Shown here: in pieces, positions 3,040-18,398 of the stretch | How the letters are laid out: every line of letters begins with the position of its first letter | Position numbering within the stretch: the stretch's first letter is position 1 | IMG/VR virus record: IMGVR_UViG_2778261575_000001 | Direction: 5' to 3' (one strand) | Length of the DNA stretch: 35,577 nucleotides | Origin: a virus | Lineage: Duplodnaviria; Heunggongvirae; Uroviricota; Caudoviricetes | Notes under the pieces: generated by a model | Told to the model about the DNA's origin: nothing | Databases searched by the model: none | Seen by the model: the letters and a program-made list of their open reading frames with translations, nothing else | Translations under genes and position numbers: made by a program

Positions 3040-3336
3040 TTATACCTCTGAATCAATATCAACCTGGTGGTGAGCAATGGTTTCAACCATGTACCGGATG
3101 TGTTCTGCCATGTGCTCCTGAAACTCAACATCGTCATCAAACGCACGGGTAATGGCTTTTTTGCTGGCCCCGTGGCGTTGCAAATGATCGATGCAGAGTG
3201 ATTCAAACAGGTGCTGTGGAAGACCTTTTTCCATGTCGTCTGCCAGTTCTGCCTCTTTCTCTTCACGGGCAATCTGCTGGTAGTGACGCGCCCAGCTCTG
3301 AGCCTCAAGACGATCCTGAATGTAATAAGCGTTCAT
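3040..3336 (-). CDS. gam: Gam (RecBCD inhibitor), short GamS-type form
   Basis: 98-aa ORF ([34 protein letters not shown]...VDIDSEV) matching the C-terminal 98 aa of lambda Gam; AGGAG RBS upstream; the upstream in-frame region is interrupted by stop codons. Confidence 0.9.
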
Positions 3337-3411
3337 GGCTGAACTCCTGAAAATGGCTGTGAAAATATCGCCCGCGAAATGCCGGGCTGATTAGGTAAAC
3401 AGGAAAGGGGA

Positions 3412-3702
3412 TTAGTGATTCAGGCCGTTGCCGCGTCCGTCGAGAAAAACTTCCACGAGCAAATCACGGGTATAAGTGCGCTCGATGCCGCGATGCAGAT
3501 AAAGCCGTCCGCGTAAATTAGCTGATGCAGTCCAGGTACCATCTTTGTGTTTGACCAGCATTCCTGGCATGACCGCACCGCGATTAACGGTCTGCGTTCC
3601 GTAATGTTGATGAACCATAAAAACTCCTGCCCGTAAGCTGGGCTGCTGAACATATAGAGACTTCTGCGCGTATTCAGGCGGTGGATGGCCGCCGGTTGTC
3701 AT
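3412..3702 (-). CDS. hypothetical early-left protein between gam and OL
   Basis: First in-frame ATG with a GAGG RBS gives 96 aa ([20 protein letters not shown]...). The track ORF extends to a TTG at 3822, adding an Arg-rich N-terminus (see findings). An alternative-frame ORF at 3420..3653 also exists. Confidence 0.3.
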
Positions 3703-3869
3703 AACTAAGCCGCCTCGTTGAAGCGACTGAGGTATGAGGTGTTGAGTTGATTTCAGCTGGTCACACCGACGTTCACGCGTCCGCTTCACCCCTCGCACTT
3801 CCCGGAGCCTGCTGAAATTCAAGCTGCGGATCTAAGCGGTCATCGCAACGGTGAATCAGGTGGTTGCCG

Positions 3870-3970
3870 TATCGTTGTGTTGTTGCGATGAATTTATTTA
3901 AAACTATAGTTGTTTTGTCGTCAACAACAAAAGTTGTTTTATTGGTTTTTTTAGATGTAAATGGTTGTAT
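3870..3970. promoter_or_regulatory. OL/pL-type operator-promoter region (GTTGTT/AACAAC inverted repeats)
   Basis: GTTGTT(3909-3914)-N8-AACAAC(3923-3928)-N4-GTTGTT(3933-3938), plus ATGGTTGT at 3961; the same half-site as the OR palindrome. Lies upstream of the leftward operon. Confidence 0.45.
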
Positions 3971-4065
3971 TTAGGATGGATTTATTTTGTGACTTGCATC
4001 GCATAGCGATAACTGAAGCGAGGTCGTGGTGGTTTTTTGAACGGTTTGTGTGATGAGGGGGAGGG

Positions 4066-4094
4066 GCAAAAGAAAACCCGGCACGGTGGCCGGG
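4066..4094 (-). terminator. intrinsic terminator downstream of the ASCH gene
   Basis: Stem CCCGGC(4077-4082)/GCCGGG(4089-4094) with a 6-nt loop; on the minus strand it is followed by TTTTCTTTT (plus 4068-4076), directly after the ASCH stop at 4099. Confidence 0.55.
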
Positions 4095-4098
4095 ATTC

Positions 4099-4476
4099 TT
4101 ACGCAGGTAGGTAAAGATATGATTGTGGTGGCTTAATATTACTACCTAGAGCAGAGATAGGAATTGGTTCTTTATATCTTTCCACTTCACCAATTTTTAT
4201 TGCGTAGGCCTTTTCTCTACCTGAATAATATGAGTCATAAAATTGCTTAGAAATACCTGCGTGTTTTTCCGTCTTTTTCCAAAGAGATTCCGGTTCGTCA
4301 CTTAGTATTGATTCAATACGGAATTGACCAACAACTTTACCTAATGGCATCGTGGCATAAATAACAACGGTGCTAATTTGCGGATTTTTGAATATACCTT
4401 TACGAAACTCGAACCGCTTTGTTCCGTTCAATATTTTTTCTGCAAACTCAGGCTTAATGGATAATAAAACTTTCAT
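4099..4476 (-). CDS. ASCH-domain (PUA-like) protein
   Basis: 125-aa ORF; N-terminus MKVLLSIKPEFAEKILNGTKRFEFRK matches the ASCH signature (K-x-LL-x-I-x-PE-[FY]...K...E-x-R); A+T-rich codon usage; start lies 23 nt inside the upstream gene. Confidence 0.65.
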   Translation of the reverse strand: MKVLLSIKPEFAEKILNGTKRFEFRKGIFKNPQISTVVIYATMPLGKVVGQFRIESILSDEPESLWKKTEKHAGISKQFYDSYYSGREKAYAIKIGEVERYKEPIPISALGSNIKPPQSYLYLPA

Positions 4477-5527
4477 TTATCTTGCCTAACTCGATGATCT
4501 TTAAGAACTGCTCATTTGTGAGTTTAAAGTGACTCCATCGGAATGCACGCGAACCATTTAGCCCCACATGATCTATTAAAATAGCACGATTGGGTCTCTT
4601 TGGCAAAGACAGATTGTATGTGAATCTTATAATGAAAGGGTATCGACGTTCTTTATAGATTTTTCTGAGTTCATCTTCAGAAAATACGCTAAAACGAATA
4701 CAATAGTCTACAAAACTATCTTCGCTTAAAAATTCAGAAATATTTTTTACGCTCTCAACTACACATAATGTACTGGCTACAGAACGATAGCGAGCTGGCC
4801 CTTTTTTGTCTCCGGTTCTATAGATGACAATGATATCTCCTCTTTTCATTCCCATCACAGAACGCATTCCACATATGTAAATTTTATGAATGCTGTTAGC
4901 ATGGGATATATCTTTGACAATATCTGGTGATTCATTTACAAGTTTTGAATCAGGGAATAGTCTAGTGTGATATTCGGGATAAATCGCCAGTAAATATTTG
5001 TTGGCTCTTGATGTCATTATTCGAGGGTAATCTAATAAAATATCACCATAAGGCTCATGCAAAGACCTCGCATATACAAACTCTTTCCCGTTATGTGTTT
5101 CTTTTTCACCATGAATGTAAAATCCGTACGTTTGGAAAAGTTTTATTAGATGGACGTGTTTGTCGAAAACAGTAACATAAATATCATCAGATTTTGATGA
5201 AAATGCATGGTCAAACGCTTTTTTTAGAAATCGTTGTCCGCGAAGGGTGCCTTTAGATTCAAATTTGAATGTTCCTATCTTTAGATGACGTCCTGGTGGG
5301 AGCGCTGGATTAATGTCATTTGCATCATCATTTTCTTTTAGATACATAAAACCTTCGATTTTATGCTTGTCATCATAGAGCACATAAGCTGATTCTCCTT
5401 CTCTGGCTTTTTTTTCTAACCAAAGAGGAAACTCTTTATAATCTTTTTTTAAAGAGTCAAAAAATGGGTCATTGTGATCAAAATCAGAGAATTTCTCATA
5501 TTTTAAAGTATCCATTAAGTTCTCCAT
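4454..5527 (-). CDS. GNAT-like acyltransferase fused to a PUA-like (ASCH-type) domain, candidate effector of an immunity-region module
   Basis: 357-aa ORF with verified ATG and TAA. N-terminal half has a GNAT-like core (...IYVTVFDKHVHLIKLFQTYGF...); C-terminal half has an ASCH-like start (KYLLAIYPEYHTRLFPDSK) followed by GDIIVIYRTG. Domain calls are by eye. Confidence 0.6.
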   Translation of the reverse strand: MENLMDTLKYEKFSDFDHNDPFFDSLKKDYKEFPLWLEKKAREGESAYVLYDDKHKIEGFMYLKENDDANDINPALPPGRHLKIGTFKFESKGTLRGQRFLKKAFDHAFSSKSDDIYVTVFDKHVHLIKLFQTYGFYIHGEKETHNGKEFVYARSLHEPYGDILLDYPRIMTSRANKYLLAIYPEYHTRLFPDSKLVNESPDIVKDISHANSIHKIYICGMRSVMGMKRGDIIVIYRTGDKKGPARYRSVASTLCVVESVKNISEFLSEDSFVDYCIRFSVFSEDELRKIYKERRYPFIIRFTYNLSLPKRPNRAILIDHVGLNGSRAFRWSHFKLTNEQFLKIIELGKINESFIIH

Positions 5528-5595: not shown

Positions 5596-6285
5596 CTATC
5601 CATGCTTCCTATACGTCTGCGGCATGCTCCCAATAACTTTCCCGAAGATAAACACCCGGTTCATCTCGTCTTTCTCGATTGGGTCCCACGGTGAGTAGCT
5701 CTTGTTATCAGAGATAACCAGCAGTTTATCCTTCATCATTTGCAGGCGCTTTACATGGGCTGTGTCGTCGTACAGAAACGCATAGATACCATCACCGTCG
5801 AAAGATTTAACCGTGATATCAACGAACAGCAGATCACCAGGTTCAATCGTTCCTGACATGCTGTCACCGCGTACGTTAATGATGCGGATATTTTCTGCCT
5901 TCCTGCCATCGAACATGTGACGAGCATCGTCAAACGAGTACTCAACCGAGCGTAGGACTTCTACAAACTCACGGTTGATGACACCCGGCCCGGCACTCAC
6001 TTCTATATCAAGAACGTCAATCTTAAAGTATTTGGAATGGCTGACAGTTGGTTGTATTGGTTGCACTGTACTGTCTGACATATTTCCAACGCCAGAAGAT
6101 AACCATTCTGCGCGCACACCCAAAGCGTTCGCGATCTCCACGATTTTAGTTGTTTGATTAGCTTTTCCTGTTTCGATTTTCTGAATAGCAGCTTGGCTAA
6201 CCCCGACCAAATCCCCAAGCGCCTTTTGTGTAAGGCCTCGCGCTAATCTGGCTTCTTTAAGTCTTTCTGAGAGTGTTGTTTTCAT
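5596..6285 (-). CDS. cI: cI-like prophage repressor (HTH_XRE + S24 LexA-like peptidase domain)
   Basis: 229-aa ORF with an N-terminal HTH (LTQKALGDLVGVSQAAIQKIETGK) and C-terminal S24 motifs (VRGDSMSGTIEPGDLLFVD ... VKRL); sits between the OL-like and OR-like repeat regions; ATG at 6285 has no SD, suggesting a leaderless mRNA. Confidence 0.85.
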   Translation of the reverse strand: MKTTLSERLKEARLARGLTQKALGDLVGVSQAAIQKIETGKANQTTKIVEIANALGVRAEWLSSGVGNMSDSTVQPIQPTVSHSKYFKIDVLDIEVSAGPGVINREFVEVLRSVEYSFDDARHMFDGRKAENIRIINVRGDSMSGTIEPGDLLFVDITVKSFDGDGIYAFLYDDTAHVKRLQMMKDKLLVISDNKSYSPWDPIEKDEMNRVFIFGKVIGSMPQTYRKHG

Positions 6286-6389
6286 AGTTCAAATGTACAA
6301 CCAAGGTTTTATTCCATCAAACGAAAATGGTTGTTGACTAAAAACAACCATAGTTTTAATCTTGATTCAAATTAACCACGGAGGTTGTT
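6286..6389. promoter_or_regulatory. OR region with divergent pRM/pR candidates
   Basis: Perfect 9-bp inverted repeat ATGGTTGTT-N7-AACAACCAT at 6327-6351. Candidate pR: TTGACT (6333-6338), 16-bp spacer, TTTAAT (6355-6360). Candidate leftward pRM (coordinates on plus strand): TTGATG (6315-6320), 17-bp spacer, TACATT (6292-6297), start at the cI ATG. Confidence 0.5.
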
Positions 6390-6620
6390 ATGAACCCAGC
6401 TATTAAAACAGCGATCAATATCGTTGGTTCACAAAAGAAACTGGGCGCTGCTTGCGAAGTTTCACAGCAGGCCGTCTATAAGTGGCTTCACAACAAAGCA
6501 AAGGTATCCCCTGAACATGTCGGCAGCATTGTTACGGCTACTGGTGGAGTAGTGAAGGCACACCAGATTCGCCCGGATCTTCCGAAGTTGTTTCCACACA
6601 CCGAAAAGAACGCAGCTTAA
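6390..6620 (+). CDS. cro: Cro-like repressor (YdaS-type HTH)
   Basis: 76-aa ORF, GGAGG RBS, first gene rightward of OR; resembles YdaS/Cro-type small HTH proteins (..GSQKKLGAACEVSQQAVYKW..). Confidence 0.7.
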   Translation: MNPAIKTAINIVGSQKKLGAACEVSQQAVYKWLHNKAKVSPEHVGSIVTATGGVVKAHQIRPDLPKLFPHTEKNAA

Positions 6621-6632
6621 ATTTCCATTTCA

Positions 6633-6645
6633 CGCTCTTTAACAA
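6633..6645 (+). promoter_or_regulatory. boxA-like element (nutR candidate)
   Basis: CGCTCTTTAACAA, 13 nt after the cro stop, closely matches the boxA consensus (lambda CGCTCTTA; rrn GCTCTTTAACAA); no boxB hairpin found. Confidence 0.35.
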
Positions 6646-6689
6646 TAAGCAATCAACTTAACAGTCAATTCAAACTAAAGGAGTCAATT

Positions 6690-7229
6690 ATGCAACCACT
6701 TACATACCAACAGACTAGCGGATTTAGCCCGACTGCGGTGATAAATCGTTCTCAAACAAAACAGGTGCCAGGCCACGAAAAAATCCGTGATGCCGTCCGC
6801 GCCTGGTCGGCTGAAGATAATCAGGATGTCGTTGCCACACTCATTGTGAATGAGTATCGGGAGCAGGGCGGCGGCACCATCGATTTCCCTGATGATGTCA
6901 GCCGTGCACGCCAGAAGCTGTTCCGCTTCCTCGATAACAAATTCGATTCTGAAAAATACCGAAATAACGTGCGTGAACTGACCCCGGCAATCCTGGCGGT
7001 ACTACCGCTGGAATATCGCGGTTACCTGGTTGAGCAGGATAGCTTCATGGCTAGGTTGGCTGAAATGGAAAAGGAACTCAGTGAGGCAAAACAGGCTGTC
7101 ATTCTCAACGCACCACGCCACCAGAAACTGAAGGAAATTAGTGAAGGTATTGTGTCGATGTTTCGTGTGGACCCAGATCTGGCTGGTCCATTGATGGCGA
7201 TGGTTACTACCATGCTGGGGGCGATATGA
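6690..7229 (+). CDS. YdaT-family regulator (CII-position protein)
   Basis: 179-aa ORF between cro and O with an AAGGAG RBS; shares the remembered YdaT-like pattern (EY.EQGGG ... PAILAVLPLEYR). Confidence 0.5.
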   Translation: MQPLTYQQTSGFSPTAVINRSQTKQVPGHEKIRDAVRAWSAEDNQDVVATLIVNEYREQGGGTIDFPDDVSRARQKLFRFLDNKFDSEKYRNNVRELTPAILAVLPLEYRGYLVEQDSFMARLAEMEKELSEAKQAVILNAPRHQKLKEISEGIVSMFRVDPDLAGPLMAMVTTMLGAI

Positions 7230-8245
7230 CAGGTTCAGAAATGGCGAAAGCCGGTCTGCTGGAACAGAACCGACTTTCAGGTGCAAATCGTAACGCACTC
7301 ATTGCGGAAGGAATTATGGCAAACACTGCTGAGATATTCAATTTTCCAGTGCCGGATGAGGCACAAAAGGAGCGGCGCGTGGCAGATCTCGATGATGGTT
7401 ATACGCGCATTGCAAATGAGTTGCTGGAAGCTGTGATGCTGGCCGGATTAACACAGCACCAGCTTCTGGTCTTCCTGGCTGTCATGCGCAAAACATATGG
7501 CTTTAATAAAAAACTGGATTGGGTGAGCAACGAGCAACTTTCCGAATTGACCGGGATATTGCCGCACAAGTGTTCTGCTGCAAAAAGCGTTCTGGTAAAG
7601 CGTGGGATTCTTATTCAGAGCGGGCGGAATATCGGCATTAATAATGTGGTCAGTGAATGGTCAACATTACCCGAATCAGGTAAGAAAAATAAAGTTTACC
7701 TGAAAGAGGCAAATTTACCTGAATCAGGTAAGAAAAGTTTACCCAAATCAGGTAAAGGCGTTTACCCGAATCAGGTAAACACAAAAGACAAACTAACAAA
7801 AGACAATATAAAACCTTTTTCGTCCGAGAATTCTGGCGAATCCTCTGACCAACCAGAAAACGATCTTCCTGTGGAGAAACCAGATGCTGCAATTCAGAGC
7901 GGCAGCAGGTGGGGGACAGCAGAAGACCTGACCGCCGCAGAGTGGATGTTTGACATGGTGAAGACCATCGCGCCATCAGCCAGAAAACCGAATTTTGCAG
8001 GGTGGGCTAACGATATCCGCCTGATGCGTGAACGTGACGGACGTAACCACCGCGACATGTGCGTGCTGTTCCGCTGGGCATGCCAGGACAACTTCTGGTC
8101 CGGTAACGTGCTAAGTCCGGCCAAACTCCGCGACAAGTGGACCCAACTCGAAATCAACCGTAACAAGCAACAGGCCGGCGTGACAGCCGGAAAATCAAAA
8201 CTCGACCTGACGAACACTGACTGGATTTATGGGGTGGATTTATGA
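7226..8245 (+). CDS. O: replication initiator O
   Basis: 339-aa ORF; N-terminal region (VADLDDGYTRIANELLEA...MRKTYGFNKK...NEQLSELTGI) matches lambda O; contains the iteron array; ATGA overlap with the upstream gene. Confidence 0.9.
   Translation: MTGSEMAKAGLLEQNRLSGANRNALIAEGIMANTAEIFNFPVPDEAQKERRVADLDDGYTRIANELLEAVMLAGLTQHQLLVFLAVMRKTYGFNKKLDWVSNEQLSELTGILPHKCSAAKSVLVKRGILIQSGRNIGINNVVSEWSTLPESGKKNKVYLKEANLPESGKKSLPKSGKGVYPNQVNTKDKLTKDNIKPFSSENSGESSDQPENDLPVEKPDAAIQSGSRWGTAEDLTAAEWMFDMVKTIAPSARKPNFAGWANDIRLMRERDGRNHRDMCVLFRWACQDNFWSGNVLSPAKLRDKWTQLEINRNKQQAGVTAGKSKLDLTNTDWIYGVDL
7667..7779. repeat. ori-lambda-type iterons within O
   Basis: Four ~18-bp repeats TTACC(C/T)(G/A)AATCAGGTAA(G/A) at 7667-7684, 7715-7732, 7739-7756 and 7762-7779, a degenerate copy at ~7696-7709, and an A+T-rich tract at ~7780-7815. 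Confidence 0.75.
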
Positions 8246-9642: not shown

Positions 9643-9897
9643 AAATAATTTATTTTTAAACGACTAAAATATTGAGGTTCGTATATTTGTATGGGCCTCG
9701 TTTTATGCTTTTTGTTAATGTCTTTAGTTTTTATTCATTCTTTTGATCTTTCAAGATTATGGTGTAAGAAAATTGCAATACGATTATTGTTGTATATTCA
9801 AGATAATGTGACCTTAATTGTCTTTTTAAATAAAAATTAAACAAAAATCATATCTCACCACTAAGGTTTATAAAAGCATACTTTAGCAGGTGTCACC

Positions 9898-11424: not shown

Positions 11425-11748
11425 GTAATAATCACTTTTTCAACCGTGCTATGGTATGAAAGTAAAGTAACTAATATGATATTAACTATCTTGAACGAAG
11501 CGCCCTGAGCTATAGTTTTACTATAGGCACTGTCACTGGATGTTGGCATTCTTGCTCTAGTAGCTCAACAATACCCAATCACAAAACAATTCACTGATAA
11601 CAAACTTTGTGCACGTGCTTGGTTATGGCGAACAGGTGATGTTAACCTCTTGCCAGAATGCCACTCCACTTCATTAAGTATCTGAGCACCGAGAGGCTGG
11701 TCACGCCCCCATTAAAAATAATTTCTTTTGAATCGAGTGAAATAGGTT

Positions 11749-11775
11749 AGCCCGCATAAGTGCGGGCTGCTTTTT
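11749..11775. terminator. hairpin terminator between the ybcK block and the esterase gene, possibly bidirectional
   Basis: Stem AGCCCGCA(11749-11756)/TGCGGGCT(11761-11768), loop TAAG, then TTTTT (11771-11775) on the plus strand; overlaps the stop of the minus-strand esterase gene. Confidence 0.5.
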
Positions 11776-18035: not shown

Positions 18036-18398
18036 TGCTTCCAGGTAGAGAGGGGCTGTAAGCAGGAGAAAAATGAAAGAGCCAGCGGTTATATTTTTGT
18101 CATGGCTGACGAGGAATGATGGAAGAAGGCGTTGTATGCCACACAACGCCTCACTGTTCATTTCTTCTTTTTCTCTGGTGGAACCCGATGAATAAGAGTT
18201 GCACTGGTTTCCGATGAGATGGCGATATACTCGGGCAAAGTATGCTGGCAGTTTTCCAACTGGTCAAAAATACCTGCTCTCGTCTGTTGCAATGCCTGCA
18301 GCATGCGGCGGCAATGCGCCTTGCTTTTACTAACCATCTTTCCTTCCTCTATCAGTCGCTGCGTGAACTCATCATGGAATACCAGGTAAATGCGGATG

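Follow-up and report, generated by a model that had tools for sequence, protein, structure and literature searches.

What is encoded between the leftward promoter and the gam gene is the question raised by the early-left region of the phage analysed here. The window, i.e., the whole stretch of 35,577 nt that was analysed, belongs to a temperate, lambda-like coliphage, of which it covers the early region and the structural genes, and the reported ORF is confirmed as the sole sizeable one between the operator/pL and gam. It lies on the minus strand at 3412–3822 and encodes 136 aa when read from TTG 3822. An ATG at 3702 preceded by GAGG, and an arginine-rich string KRTRERR at 3786–3766 upstream of it, are present as given in a preliminary description of this DNA. 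There the function was regarded as unknown, and the product was proposed to be either a divergent N-like antiterminator using a non-canonical start or an unrelated early protein of a phage that antiterminates differently. The observation was real but mis-assigned. Very probably, the reported ORF is a gene-finder artefact, in which a real kil gene of 68 codons (3618–3412) is fused to an open reading of an untranslated leader of about 270 nt.

Positions 3300–4100 are 99.9% identical to Escherichia phage PhiR47_2 and 92–98% identical to about 15 further isolated phages. On the minus strand, a cI-type repressor gene (5596–6285) is followed by GevT (4454–5527) and GevA (4099–4476), both designated by the PhiR47_2 gene names, and by a terminator at 4094–4077, located between GevA and the operator/pL. 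The pL promoter with its overlapping operator occupies 3896–3928. Its -35 hexamer TTGACG (3919–3924) and probable -10 hexamer TTAAAT (3896–3901) were read by eye from the sequence, and pL was not called by a consensus promoter scanner, so the start site is uncertain by about 10 nt. The operator palindrome GTTGTT-N8-AACAAC overlapping pL (3909–3928) is repeated at OR (6330–6348) and has just two other matches in the window, at 18131 and 33615, the chance expectation being 0.16. The gene order of the early-left region is pL-leader-kil-gam-bet-exo. The kil gene of the KilR family occupies 3412–3618 including the stop codon; a weak terminator-like hairpin lies between kil and gam at 3370–3387, in a region common to the lambda sequence upstream of gam, and gam is at 3040–3336 (Pfam Gam, E 3e-64).

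The identity of the gene was recognized from profiles and alignments. The 136-aa ORF matched PHROG 294, "Kil protein for bacterial septation inhibition", with E 1e-38, but with aa 60–136 only. NCBIfam NF008465, the model of the Rac FtsZ inhibitor KilR, was matched with E 1e-16, and position 1 of the profile fell on aa 69; with 60.6 bits the score is below the model cut-off of 92, so the product is placed in a sister subfamily at family level and is not a KilR equivalog. In BLASTP, the 68-aa product is 36% identical to Rac KilR (E 9e-13), and residues 1–59 align to residues 1–61 from Met1 to Met1 over 61 residues. A search of 5.8 billion proteins yielded 80 relatives. Precomputed Pfam PF27398 was found on almost all kil homologues, several of which are named "cell division inhibitor protein", and a 207-nt gene for a 68-aa "phage encoded cell division inhibitor protein" is annotated by RefSeq in all four E. 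coli genomes examined. Size and N-terminal collinearity (68 aa from ATG 3618, with about 65–85 aa in the family) and the location in the early-left (pL) operon beside a recombination module agree with the profile matches to PHROG 294 and PF27398 and the NF008465 match below its cut-off. On this evidence, residues 69–136 of the reported ORF are classified as a Kil/KilR-family division inhibitor, a known kind of phage protein already correctly annotated in RefSeq. From the 36% identity to KilR and the family names, it is predicted to inhibit FtsZ; inhibition of the FtsZ ring, with toxicity relieved by FtsZ overproduction, is established for Rac KilR only (PMC12482147).

A function can thus be proposed for the ORF from PHROG 294, NF008465 and Rac KilR, which replaces the earlier "unknown function". 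The preliminary description had also stated that N, kil, cIII and ral are lacking. In tblastn against the window, lambda N, HK97 N, Nun, cIII, ral, ea10, orf28 and lambda kil gave a best E of about 0.1, which upholds the absence of N, cIII and ral and shows ea10 and orf28 to be lacking as well; kil is nevertheless present, as the ORF itself is of KilR type. The lack of kil is true for lambda-type kil only, the functional analogue being the reported ORF. A confident homology hit to an unrelated family, which the same description had named as evidence against an N-like protein, was obtained, since the protein is a Kil.

Comparative data place the start of kil at ATG 3618. This codon is preceded by a Shine-Dalgarno sequence AGGAG (3624–3628) and five T residues; the duplex with the anti-Shine-Dalgarno sequence has -6.9 kcal/mol, and the region around it is not unusually structured (z = -0.36). 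When sequences from Escherichia, Enterobacter, Klebsiella, and Salmonella were aligned, conservation started at MVHQHYGTQ, i.e., at Met69 of the reported ORF (3618), and the sequences upstream of Met69 were wholly different between genera. Diversity in kil is 0.006, 0.013 and 0.069 at codon positions 1, 2 and 3, respectively, and strong third-position diversity is seen only from 3618 onward. Natural frameshift variants between 3702 and 3618 were recognized in two contigs (L024 and L032). The 96-aa product from ATG 3702 in the preliminary description is over-extended, as family conservation, the KilR alignment and the RefSeq models all start at 3618. The main value of the analysis is this correction: several deposited phage genomes annotate the gene as 96, 128 or 139 aa, and a reading of the sequence alone can take the leader for an N-like protein.

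The in-frame extension between TTG 3822 and ATG 3702 (3703–3822, minus strand) was compared in two sets of natural variants. Set 1 was retrieved with an 18-mer inside the KRTRERR motif (119 contexts, 99 unique sequences), and the motif stretch is therefore forced to be invariant there. Set 2 was retrieved with a 26-mer downstream of the motif and is unbiased for it; it has 188 contexts, 112 of them with this type of leader, and the motif stretch is exact in 111 of the 112 copies. Within the 18-mer, one variant (L207) has the sole natural change, in which TGT replaces CGT, and hence Cys replaces Arg, at a loop position. In set 1, the frame from TTG 3822 runs into kil in 48 of the 99 unique variants and is broken before or at kil in 51. 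A CAG to TAG change at 3729 is present in 35 of them, and eight more sequences of the same length have a frame that does not reach kil (43 in all); a 5-nt CAACY insertion after 3750 occurs in six variants and a 1-nt insertion in one. Changes found in at least three unique sequences number five, five and six at frame positions 1, 2 and 3 of the extension, in contrast to kil, where they are overwhelmingly at the third position. The corresponding diversities of the extension in set 2, from which the kil values given above also come, are 0.030, 0.024 and 0.046. TTG 3822 has no Shine-Dalgarno complementarity (+0.4 kcal/mol), and the SD-like sequences of the in-frame GTG 3798 and GTG 3789 directly adjoin these codons (zero spacing). 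The 40-aa peptide of the extension matched no family in PHROG, and in tblastn against 50,697 phage records with E up to 10 it recovered only the same 16 E. coli phages. Judged from these comparisons, the extension 3822–3703 is non-coding. Two observations speak for coding: TTG 3822 is kept in 98 of the 99 variants, with GTG in the remaining one, and the three commonest polymorphisms of the extension (3805, 3784 and 3739) are synonymous in the Arg-rich frame.

The KRTRERR string, which had been likened to the arginine-rich motif of N proteins, does not exceed chance expectation. Comparable 7-mers (at least four R and at least five R+K) occur 23 times when the window is translated in six frames, about 0.06 Arg-rich 7-mers are expected per leader of 190 nt, and lambda N aligns to this stretch with E = 84 at best. 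The codons AAG CGG ACG CGT GAA CGT CGG (3766–3786) coincide with a small CG-rich hairpin with the stem GACG/CGUC at 3781–3768. The relative L151 offers a parallel of the artefact seen here: its genuine putL RNA, when read in the frame of the MTTGG ORF that follows, also yields an open Arg-rich frame. A divergent N-like antiterminator with a non-canonical start is disfavoured by the lack of N homology, boxB, Shine-Dalgarno sequence and codon periodicity, and by a frame broken in about half of the variants.

Elements of known antitermination systems were searched for in the same region. PHROG 271 ("anti-termination protein N-like") was matched neither by the 136-aa ORF nor by the 40-aa extension, while the controls lambda N and HK97 N matched it with 9e-24 and 4e-38, respectively. 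The ORF had no Pfam match with E of 0.1 or better, and the annotation of PhiR47_2, the phage with 99.9% identity, contains no N. Descent of the leader from a decayed N gene was considered and rejected, as no protein or DNA similarity to N was found in the 50,697 phage records. Hairpins of the boxB type, defined by a perfect stem of 4 bp or more and a GNRA-type loop of 5–6 nt, are absent from 3600–3900 on the minus strand and from 6350–7300 on the plus strand, which agrees with the earlier statement that there is none between the OL region and the ORF. No boxA within three mismatches was found in the pL leader, and a perfect rrn-type boxA is located after cro, at 6633–6645. A lambda-type N system is thus matched here neither by sequence (PHROG 271, Pfam, tblastn), nor by nut sites in both early transcripts, with boxA after cro only, nor by a translated conserved Arg-rich ORF. 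The boxA and the leader were also considered as a nutR/nutL-like couple, which was rejected because phage Perceval has the same leader and no boxA after cro. This boxA is tied to the immunity type and not to the leader.

For put RNAs, a covariance model was built from eight put sequences, with a consensus of two stem-loops, CGAACGGC...GUCGG...GGCG-GG...CAAU. It scored HK022 putL with 92.7 bits, HK022 putR with 61.8 bits and the putL of L151 with 99.9 bits. The best score in the window was 10.4 bits (E 0.18) at 7344–7418, outside the leader, and there was no match of the leader to the consensus. Paired copies after pL and pR were also lacking, as no second copy of the leader was found in the window, with a 15-nt repeat at 6611–6625 (E 1.8) as the best candidate. 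By the model and the copy number, the leader is not a put RNA, and the nut- or put-like structures that the preliminary description proposed to look for in the pL leader were returned by neither the boxA and boxB scans nor the put covariance model. Its second proposal, of an early protein unrelated to N in a phage with another way of antitermination, was essentially right: the protein is a predicted FtsZ inhibitor, and no N or put element was recognized. Neither N nor put is present in these viable lambda-like coliphages, nor in a prophage type that about four in ten complete E. coli genomes carry. How N-less phages get past the terminators before Q and int are reached is a recognised question, raised for phage LLS (PMC12315714). 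For read-through, attention falls naturally on the conserved leader and on the perfect boxA downstream of cro.

The leader of the kil-gam-bet-exo transcript (3619–3889, minus strand) is an untranslated region of about 270 nt. Homology with hetero-immune phages begins at 3888 or 3853, which is taken as the probable transcription start and 5' end. Of 5426 complete E. coli genomes, 2222 (41%) carry the leader with 95–99% identity, and no annotated feature covers it in RefSeq among the matches listed. Its range is limited to E. coli; when 185,579 species-representative genomes were scanned with a 20-mer, the sole match was a chance one in a Gemmatimonadales MAG. Its diversity is 0.024 and 0.020 versus 0.069 at the third positions of kil, and with 0.060 in the kil-gam spacer the leader is 2.5–3.5 times less diverse than the spacer and the kil third positions (set 2). 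A C-rich, G-poor unstructured tract, UGAAAUCAACUCAACACCUCAUACCUCA (3728–3755, composition read from the sequence), is the site of the natural CAACY insertion and could be a candidate Rho-loading (rut-like) region. At gathering thresholds, Rfam had no match in the whole window, and at E up to 10 it returned only sub-threshold chance matches in 3300–4100, such as ALIL with 20.8 bits, a threshold of 50 and the wrong strand; Rfam is without a put family, and HK022 itself was unmatched. Homology of the leader with the leader of Rac kilR and its KilS sRNA was considered as well, and by inspection of the Rac sequence the two are unrelated.

A reading compatible with the kil explanation, which concerns the role of the non-coding leader, is that its part at about 3889–3740 is a cis-acting RNA of a new family, i.e., a put-like antiterminator, or else an element that regulates the toxic kil gene as a riboregulator or by Rho attenuation. 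In a set retrieved without reference to the leader, constraint is seen at each of the three frame positions (0.024); the leader also begins at the transcription start when the immunity region is of another type, and is as widespread in complete E. coli genomes as given above. Eight of eight common polymorphisms in predicted local stems keep pairing via G-U, where about half are expected by chance. In L151, the genuine putL lies in exactly the slot of the leader, between pL and a conserved hairpin module (3736–3677), and in most other relatives the slot holds an ORF ended by a terminator, which argues weakly for a functional leader RNA. Phages bearing the leader form plaques without N, and terminator-like sites are present between cro and Q (9673–9700 and 11748–11769), so the rightward operon probably still needs some read-through. 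On the other side, the whole leader folds no better than its shuffles (z = -1.2), its individual hairpins are marginal (z = -1.4 to -1.9), and the put covariance model finds nothing in it. A second copy in the pR operon, which would be expected of put and nut elements because they are paired, is lacking, and there is no terminator between pL and kil that would need suppression. Double compensatory changes are also absent, because all copies are 95–99% identical and confined to E. coli, and the low diversity could reflect recent spread. Taken together, a new family of cis-acting RNA is rather unlikely, and it is slightly less probable again that the segment of about 150 nt at 3889–3740 controls early-left transcription or kil translation in this way. 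If true, it would represent a protein-independent control of the early-left operon (antitermination or Rho attenuation) or a control of kil translation in N-less lambda-like phages.

The hairpin module at 3736–3677 is common to phi80, HK225, Enterobacter phage ENT1, Klebsiella phage KO-TP1 and more than 180 IMG/VR contigs. It begins with a covarying hairpin (3700–3736, minus strand), in which CAU is paired with the AUG at 3702–3700 and UUC with GAG of the GAGG taken earlier for a ribosome-binding site. This hairpin has z = -4.9, and none of 200 shuffles folds as well; 98.6% of cells are paired, versus 31–50% in slid controls. Seven pairs are changed on both sides, and the observed covariation was reached by none of 500 shuffles, the sample being 14 distinct variants chosen by hand. 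A second hairpin, GGCGG-CCAUCCA-CCGCC (3677–3693, z = -2.3), follows inside UUAUGACAACCGGCGGCCAUCCACCGCC, a block almost nucleotide-invariant across genera. Directly 5' of the module, most relatives have an intrinsic terminator and L151 has putL. The N PHROG does not include the proteins encoded upstream of it in HK225 and phi80, so it is not claimed that N and tL1 generally precede the module. In phi80, HK225 and L151, the AUG of the module opens an ORF of just 15–21 codons (MTTGGHPP...). In the window, this ORF is in frame with kil, and natural variants have a stop or frameshifts between the two.

ATG 3702 could also start a longer Kil isoform of 96 aa, in which the extra 28 residues are a lineage-specific N-terminal tail. 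It has GAGG 6 nt away, a workable distance (-7.3 kcal/mol), shares the reading frame of kil in the window, and is chosen by Prodigal-type callers, which give 96 aa (P0002 with 472 members; IdasGreatGrand); RBS strength and predicted accessibility alone do not separate it from ATG 3618. However, ATG 3702 and its GAGG are base-paired within the covarying hairpin, and the same ATG in phi80, HK225 and L151 opens a separate ORF. The 28 codons between 3702 and 3618 have no third-position excess, natural variants carry a stop (3670) or frameshifts within them and keep kil intact, and the nucleotide sequence of the block does not vary between genera, which speaks for a signal in RNA or DNA. The 96-aa isoform is therefore improbable; as RBS energy and accessibility leave some initiation at 3702 possible, a small probability is kept for it as a minor product.

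A stand-alone Arg-rich micro-protein acting as a minimal N-like factor (31–42 aa from TTG 3822, or about 20–30 aa from GTG/ATG 3789) could be proposed from the first 31 codons, which are open in 98 of the 99 variants, from the positions of the 3729 stop and the 5-nt insertion, both downstream of the motif, from ATG in place of GTG at 3789 in 14 variants, which gives M-KRTRERR with the start directly before the motif, and from the resemblance of KRTRERR to TRRRERR of lambda N. It is very improbable, as a Shine-Dalgarno sequence is lacking at TTG 3822 and the SD-like GAGGGG runs directly into 3789 with no spacer, neither boxB nor boxA is found in the pL leader nor boxB after cro, no N family is matched with working controls and with the lambda N alignment at E = 84, distinct non-synonymous changes exceed synonymous ones in the first 31 codons (about 13 vs. 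7) and include Arg to Trp, Arg to Cys and Val to Gly, codon 11 of the TTG frame carries a frameshift in one variant (L017), and the frequency of the Arg-rich motif is compatible with chance.

The kil explanation can be put together as follows. When the cI-type repressor is inactivated, pL (about 3924–3896) would fire, and RNA polymerase would transcribe the leader and then kil, gam, bet and exo. No intrinsic terminator was found between pL and kil, so expression of kil should need no N-type antitermination. Kil would be translated from its own AGGAG-N5-ATG at 3618 and, by homology to Rac KilR, would block assembly of the Z-ring, and the induced cell would filament. KRTRERR is a one-frame spelling of the CG-rich hairpin CGG ACG CGU GAA CGU CGG, a near-palindrome, and is neither part of Kil nor an N-type RNA-binding arm. 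The upstream ATG 3702 with its GAGG is locked in the conserved hairpin, and in relatives it opens just a short variable upstream ORF.

Four known systems were compared with this locus. The arginine-rich motif of lambda N binds boxB in nutL and nutR. The reported ORF resembles lambda N in its position, which is the first downstream of pL, in a string of seven residues rich in Arg similar to TRRRERR, and in the boxA located after cro, but it has no N homology, no usable start context and no conservation of the frame, and boxB is lacking at either site. HK022 put elements are antiterminator RNAs that act independently of a protein. Similar to HK022, this is a phage without N, it has a conserved leader with stem-loops that begins at the pL start, and the leader is placed as putL is in L151 relative to the hairpin module; unlike put, the leader does not match the put model and has no second copy downstream of pR.

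Lambda Kil has 47 aa and is a ZipA-dependent inhibitor of FtsZ. The kil gene of the window is in the same slot immediately upstream of gam, the same phenotype (filamentation on induction) would be expected, and the product name is the same in PHROG-style annotation, but the two proteins have no detectable sequence similarity (tblastn E > 0.4). KilR and lambda Kil are unrelated and differ in their action (PMC12482147). The Rac prophage of E. coli encodes KilR (b1352, 73 aa), an inhibitor of both FtsZ and MreB (PMC12482147). The neighbouring genes are gam-bet-exo here versus recET in Rac, and the C-terminal tail is GRGNGLNH here versus DGLPVKAESW in Rac KilR, where the tail is critical. With Rac KilR, the product of the window shares a length of about 70 aa, the same PHROG and NCBIfam neighbourhood, the location in an early-left operon beside recombination genes, and a long non-coding leader upstream, which in Rac holds the annotated sRNA KilS.

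In front of the kil gene, the window has a conserved module at 3736-3677 (minus strand), in which a covarying hairpin is followed by the invariant block UUAUGACAACCGGCGGCCAUCCACCGCC. The module is common to lambdoid phages from several genera, and further copies were located in phage phi80 (L006, 355-411), in the comparison sequences L007 (2501-2561), L135, and L136, and in the IMG/VR contig L151 (about 6240-6300). Usually, an intrinsic terminator lies directly 5' of it and kil or other early-left genes lie 3'. A short ORF of variable length (MTTGGHPP...) starts in the module, and the nucleotide-level invariance of the UUAUGACAACCGGCGGCCAUCCACCGCC block points to a possible RNA or DNA signal. 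Two natural polymorphisms of the pL leader are common among E. coli prophages. The first, at 3750/3749 (minus strand), is a 5-nt CAACY duplication within a C-rich tract, and the second is a C to T change at 3729 (minus strand), a bulged position in the conserved hairpin.

The gene order of contig L151 is pL, putL (99.9 bits with the put covariance model), the hairpin module, short ORFs, a kil homologue of 67 aa, and gam. The ORF finder translated its putL straight through as an Arg-rich "protein" (6151-6340, plus strand), which is the same artefact as the Arg-rich frame of the window. The gene annotated as "N" in the 1988 phi80 record (X13065; 432-728, minus strand) has no arginine-rich motif and does not belong to the N-like family PHROG 271; it is a member of PHROG 25091, of unknown function. 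In the phi80 pL leader, about 400 nt of GC-rich sequence lie ahead of this gene, and there is a boxA close to the consensus, TGCTTTTTAACAA.

Two strong terminator-like hairpins, each with a T-tract, are present at 9673-9700 and 11748-11769 (plus strand), both between the replication genes and Q, and therefore read-through is probably needed in the rightward operon of the window, even though N and put are absent. A perfect rrn-type boxA, CGCTCTTTAACAA (13/13 match; 6633-6645, plus strand), occurs as a single copy within the window in the nutR position, 13 nt 3' of the cro stop codon. No boxB was found 3' of it, where the sequence is AT-rich and C-rich. This boxA might recruit NusB/NusE for N-independent read-through. 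Phage Perceval has no boxA after cro despite having the same pL leader; its immunity region is different.

In the position of rexAB, between cI and pL, the window has a two-gene cassette on the minus strand, coding for an ASCH-domain protein (4099-4476) and a 357-aa protein of PHROG 13728 with acetyltransferase-like N-terminus (4454-5527), annotated in phage PhiR47_2 as GevA antitoxin and GevT toxin, respectively. The cassette has its own terminator at 4094-4077, after the two genes.

In the Rac prophage of E. coli K-12 (L134), the leader upstream of kilR carries the annotated small RNA KilS (5406-5503, minus strand). Its sequence is unrelated to the pL leader of the window, but it is a precedent for kil-type genes located behind leader-encoded RNAs.
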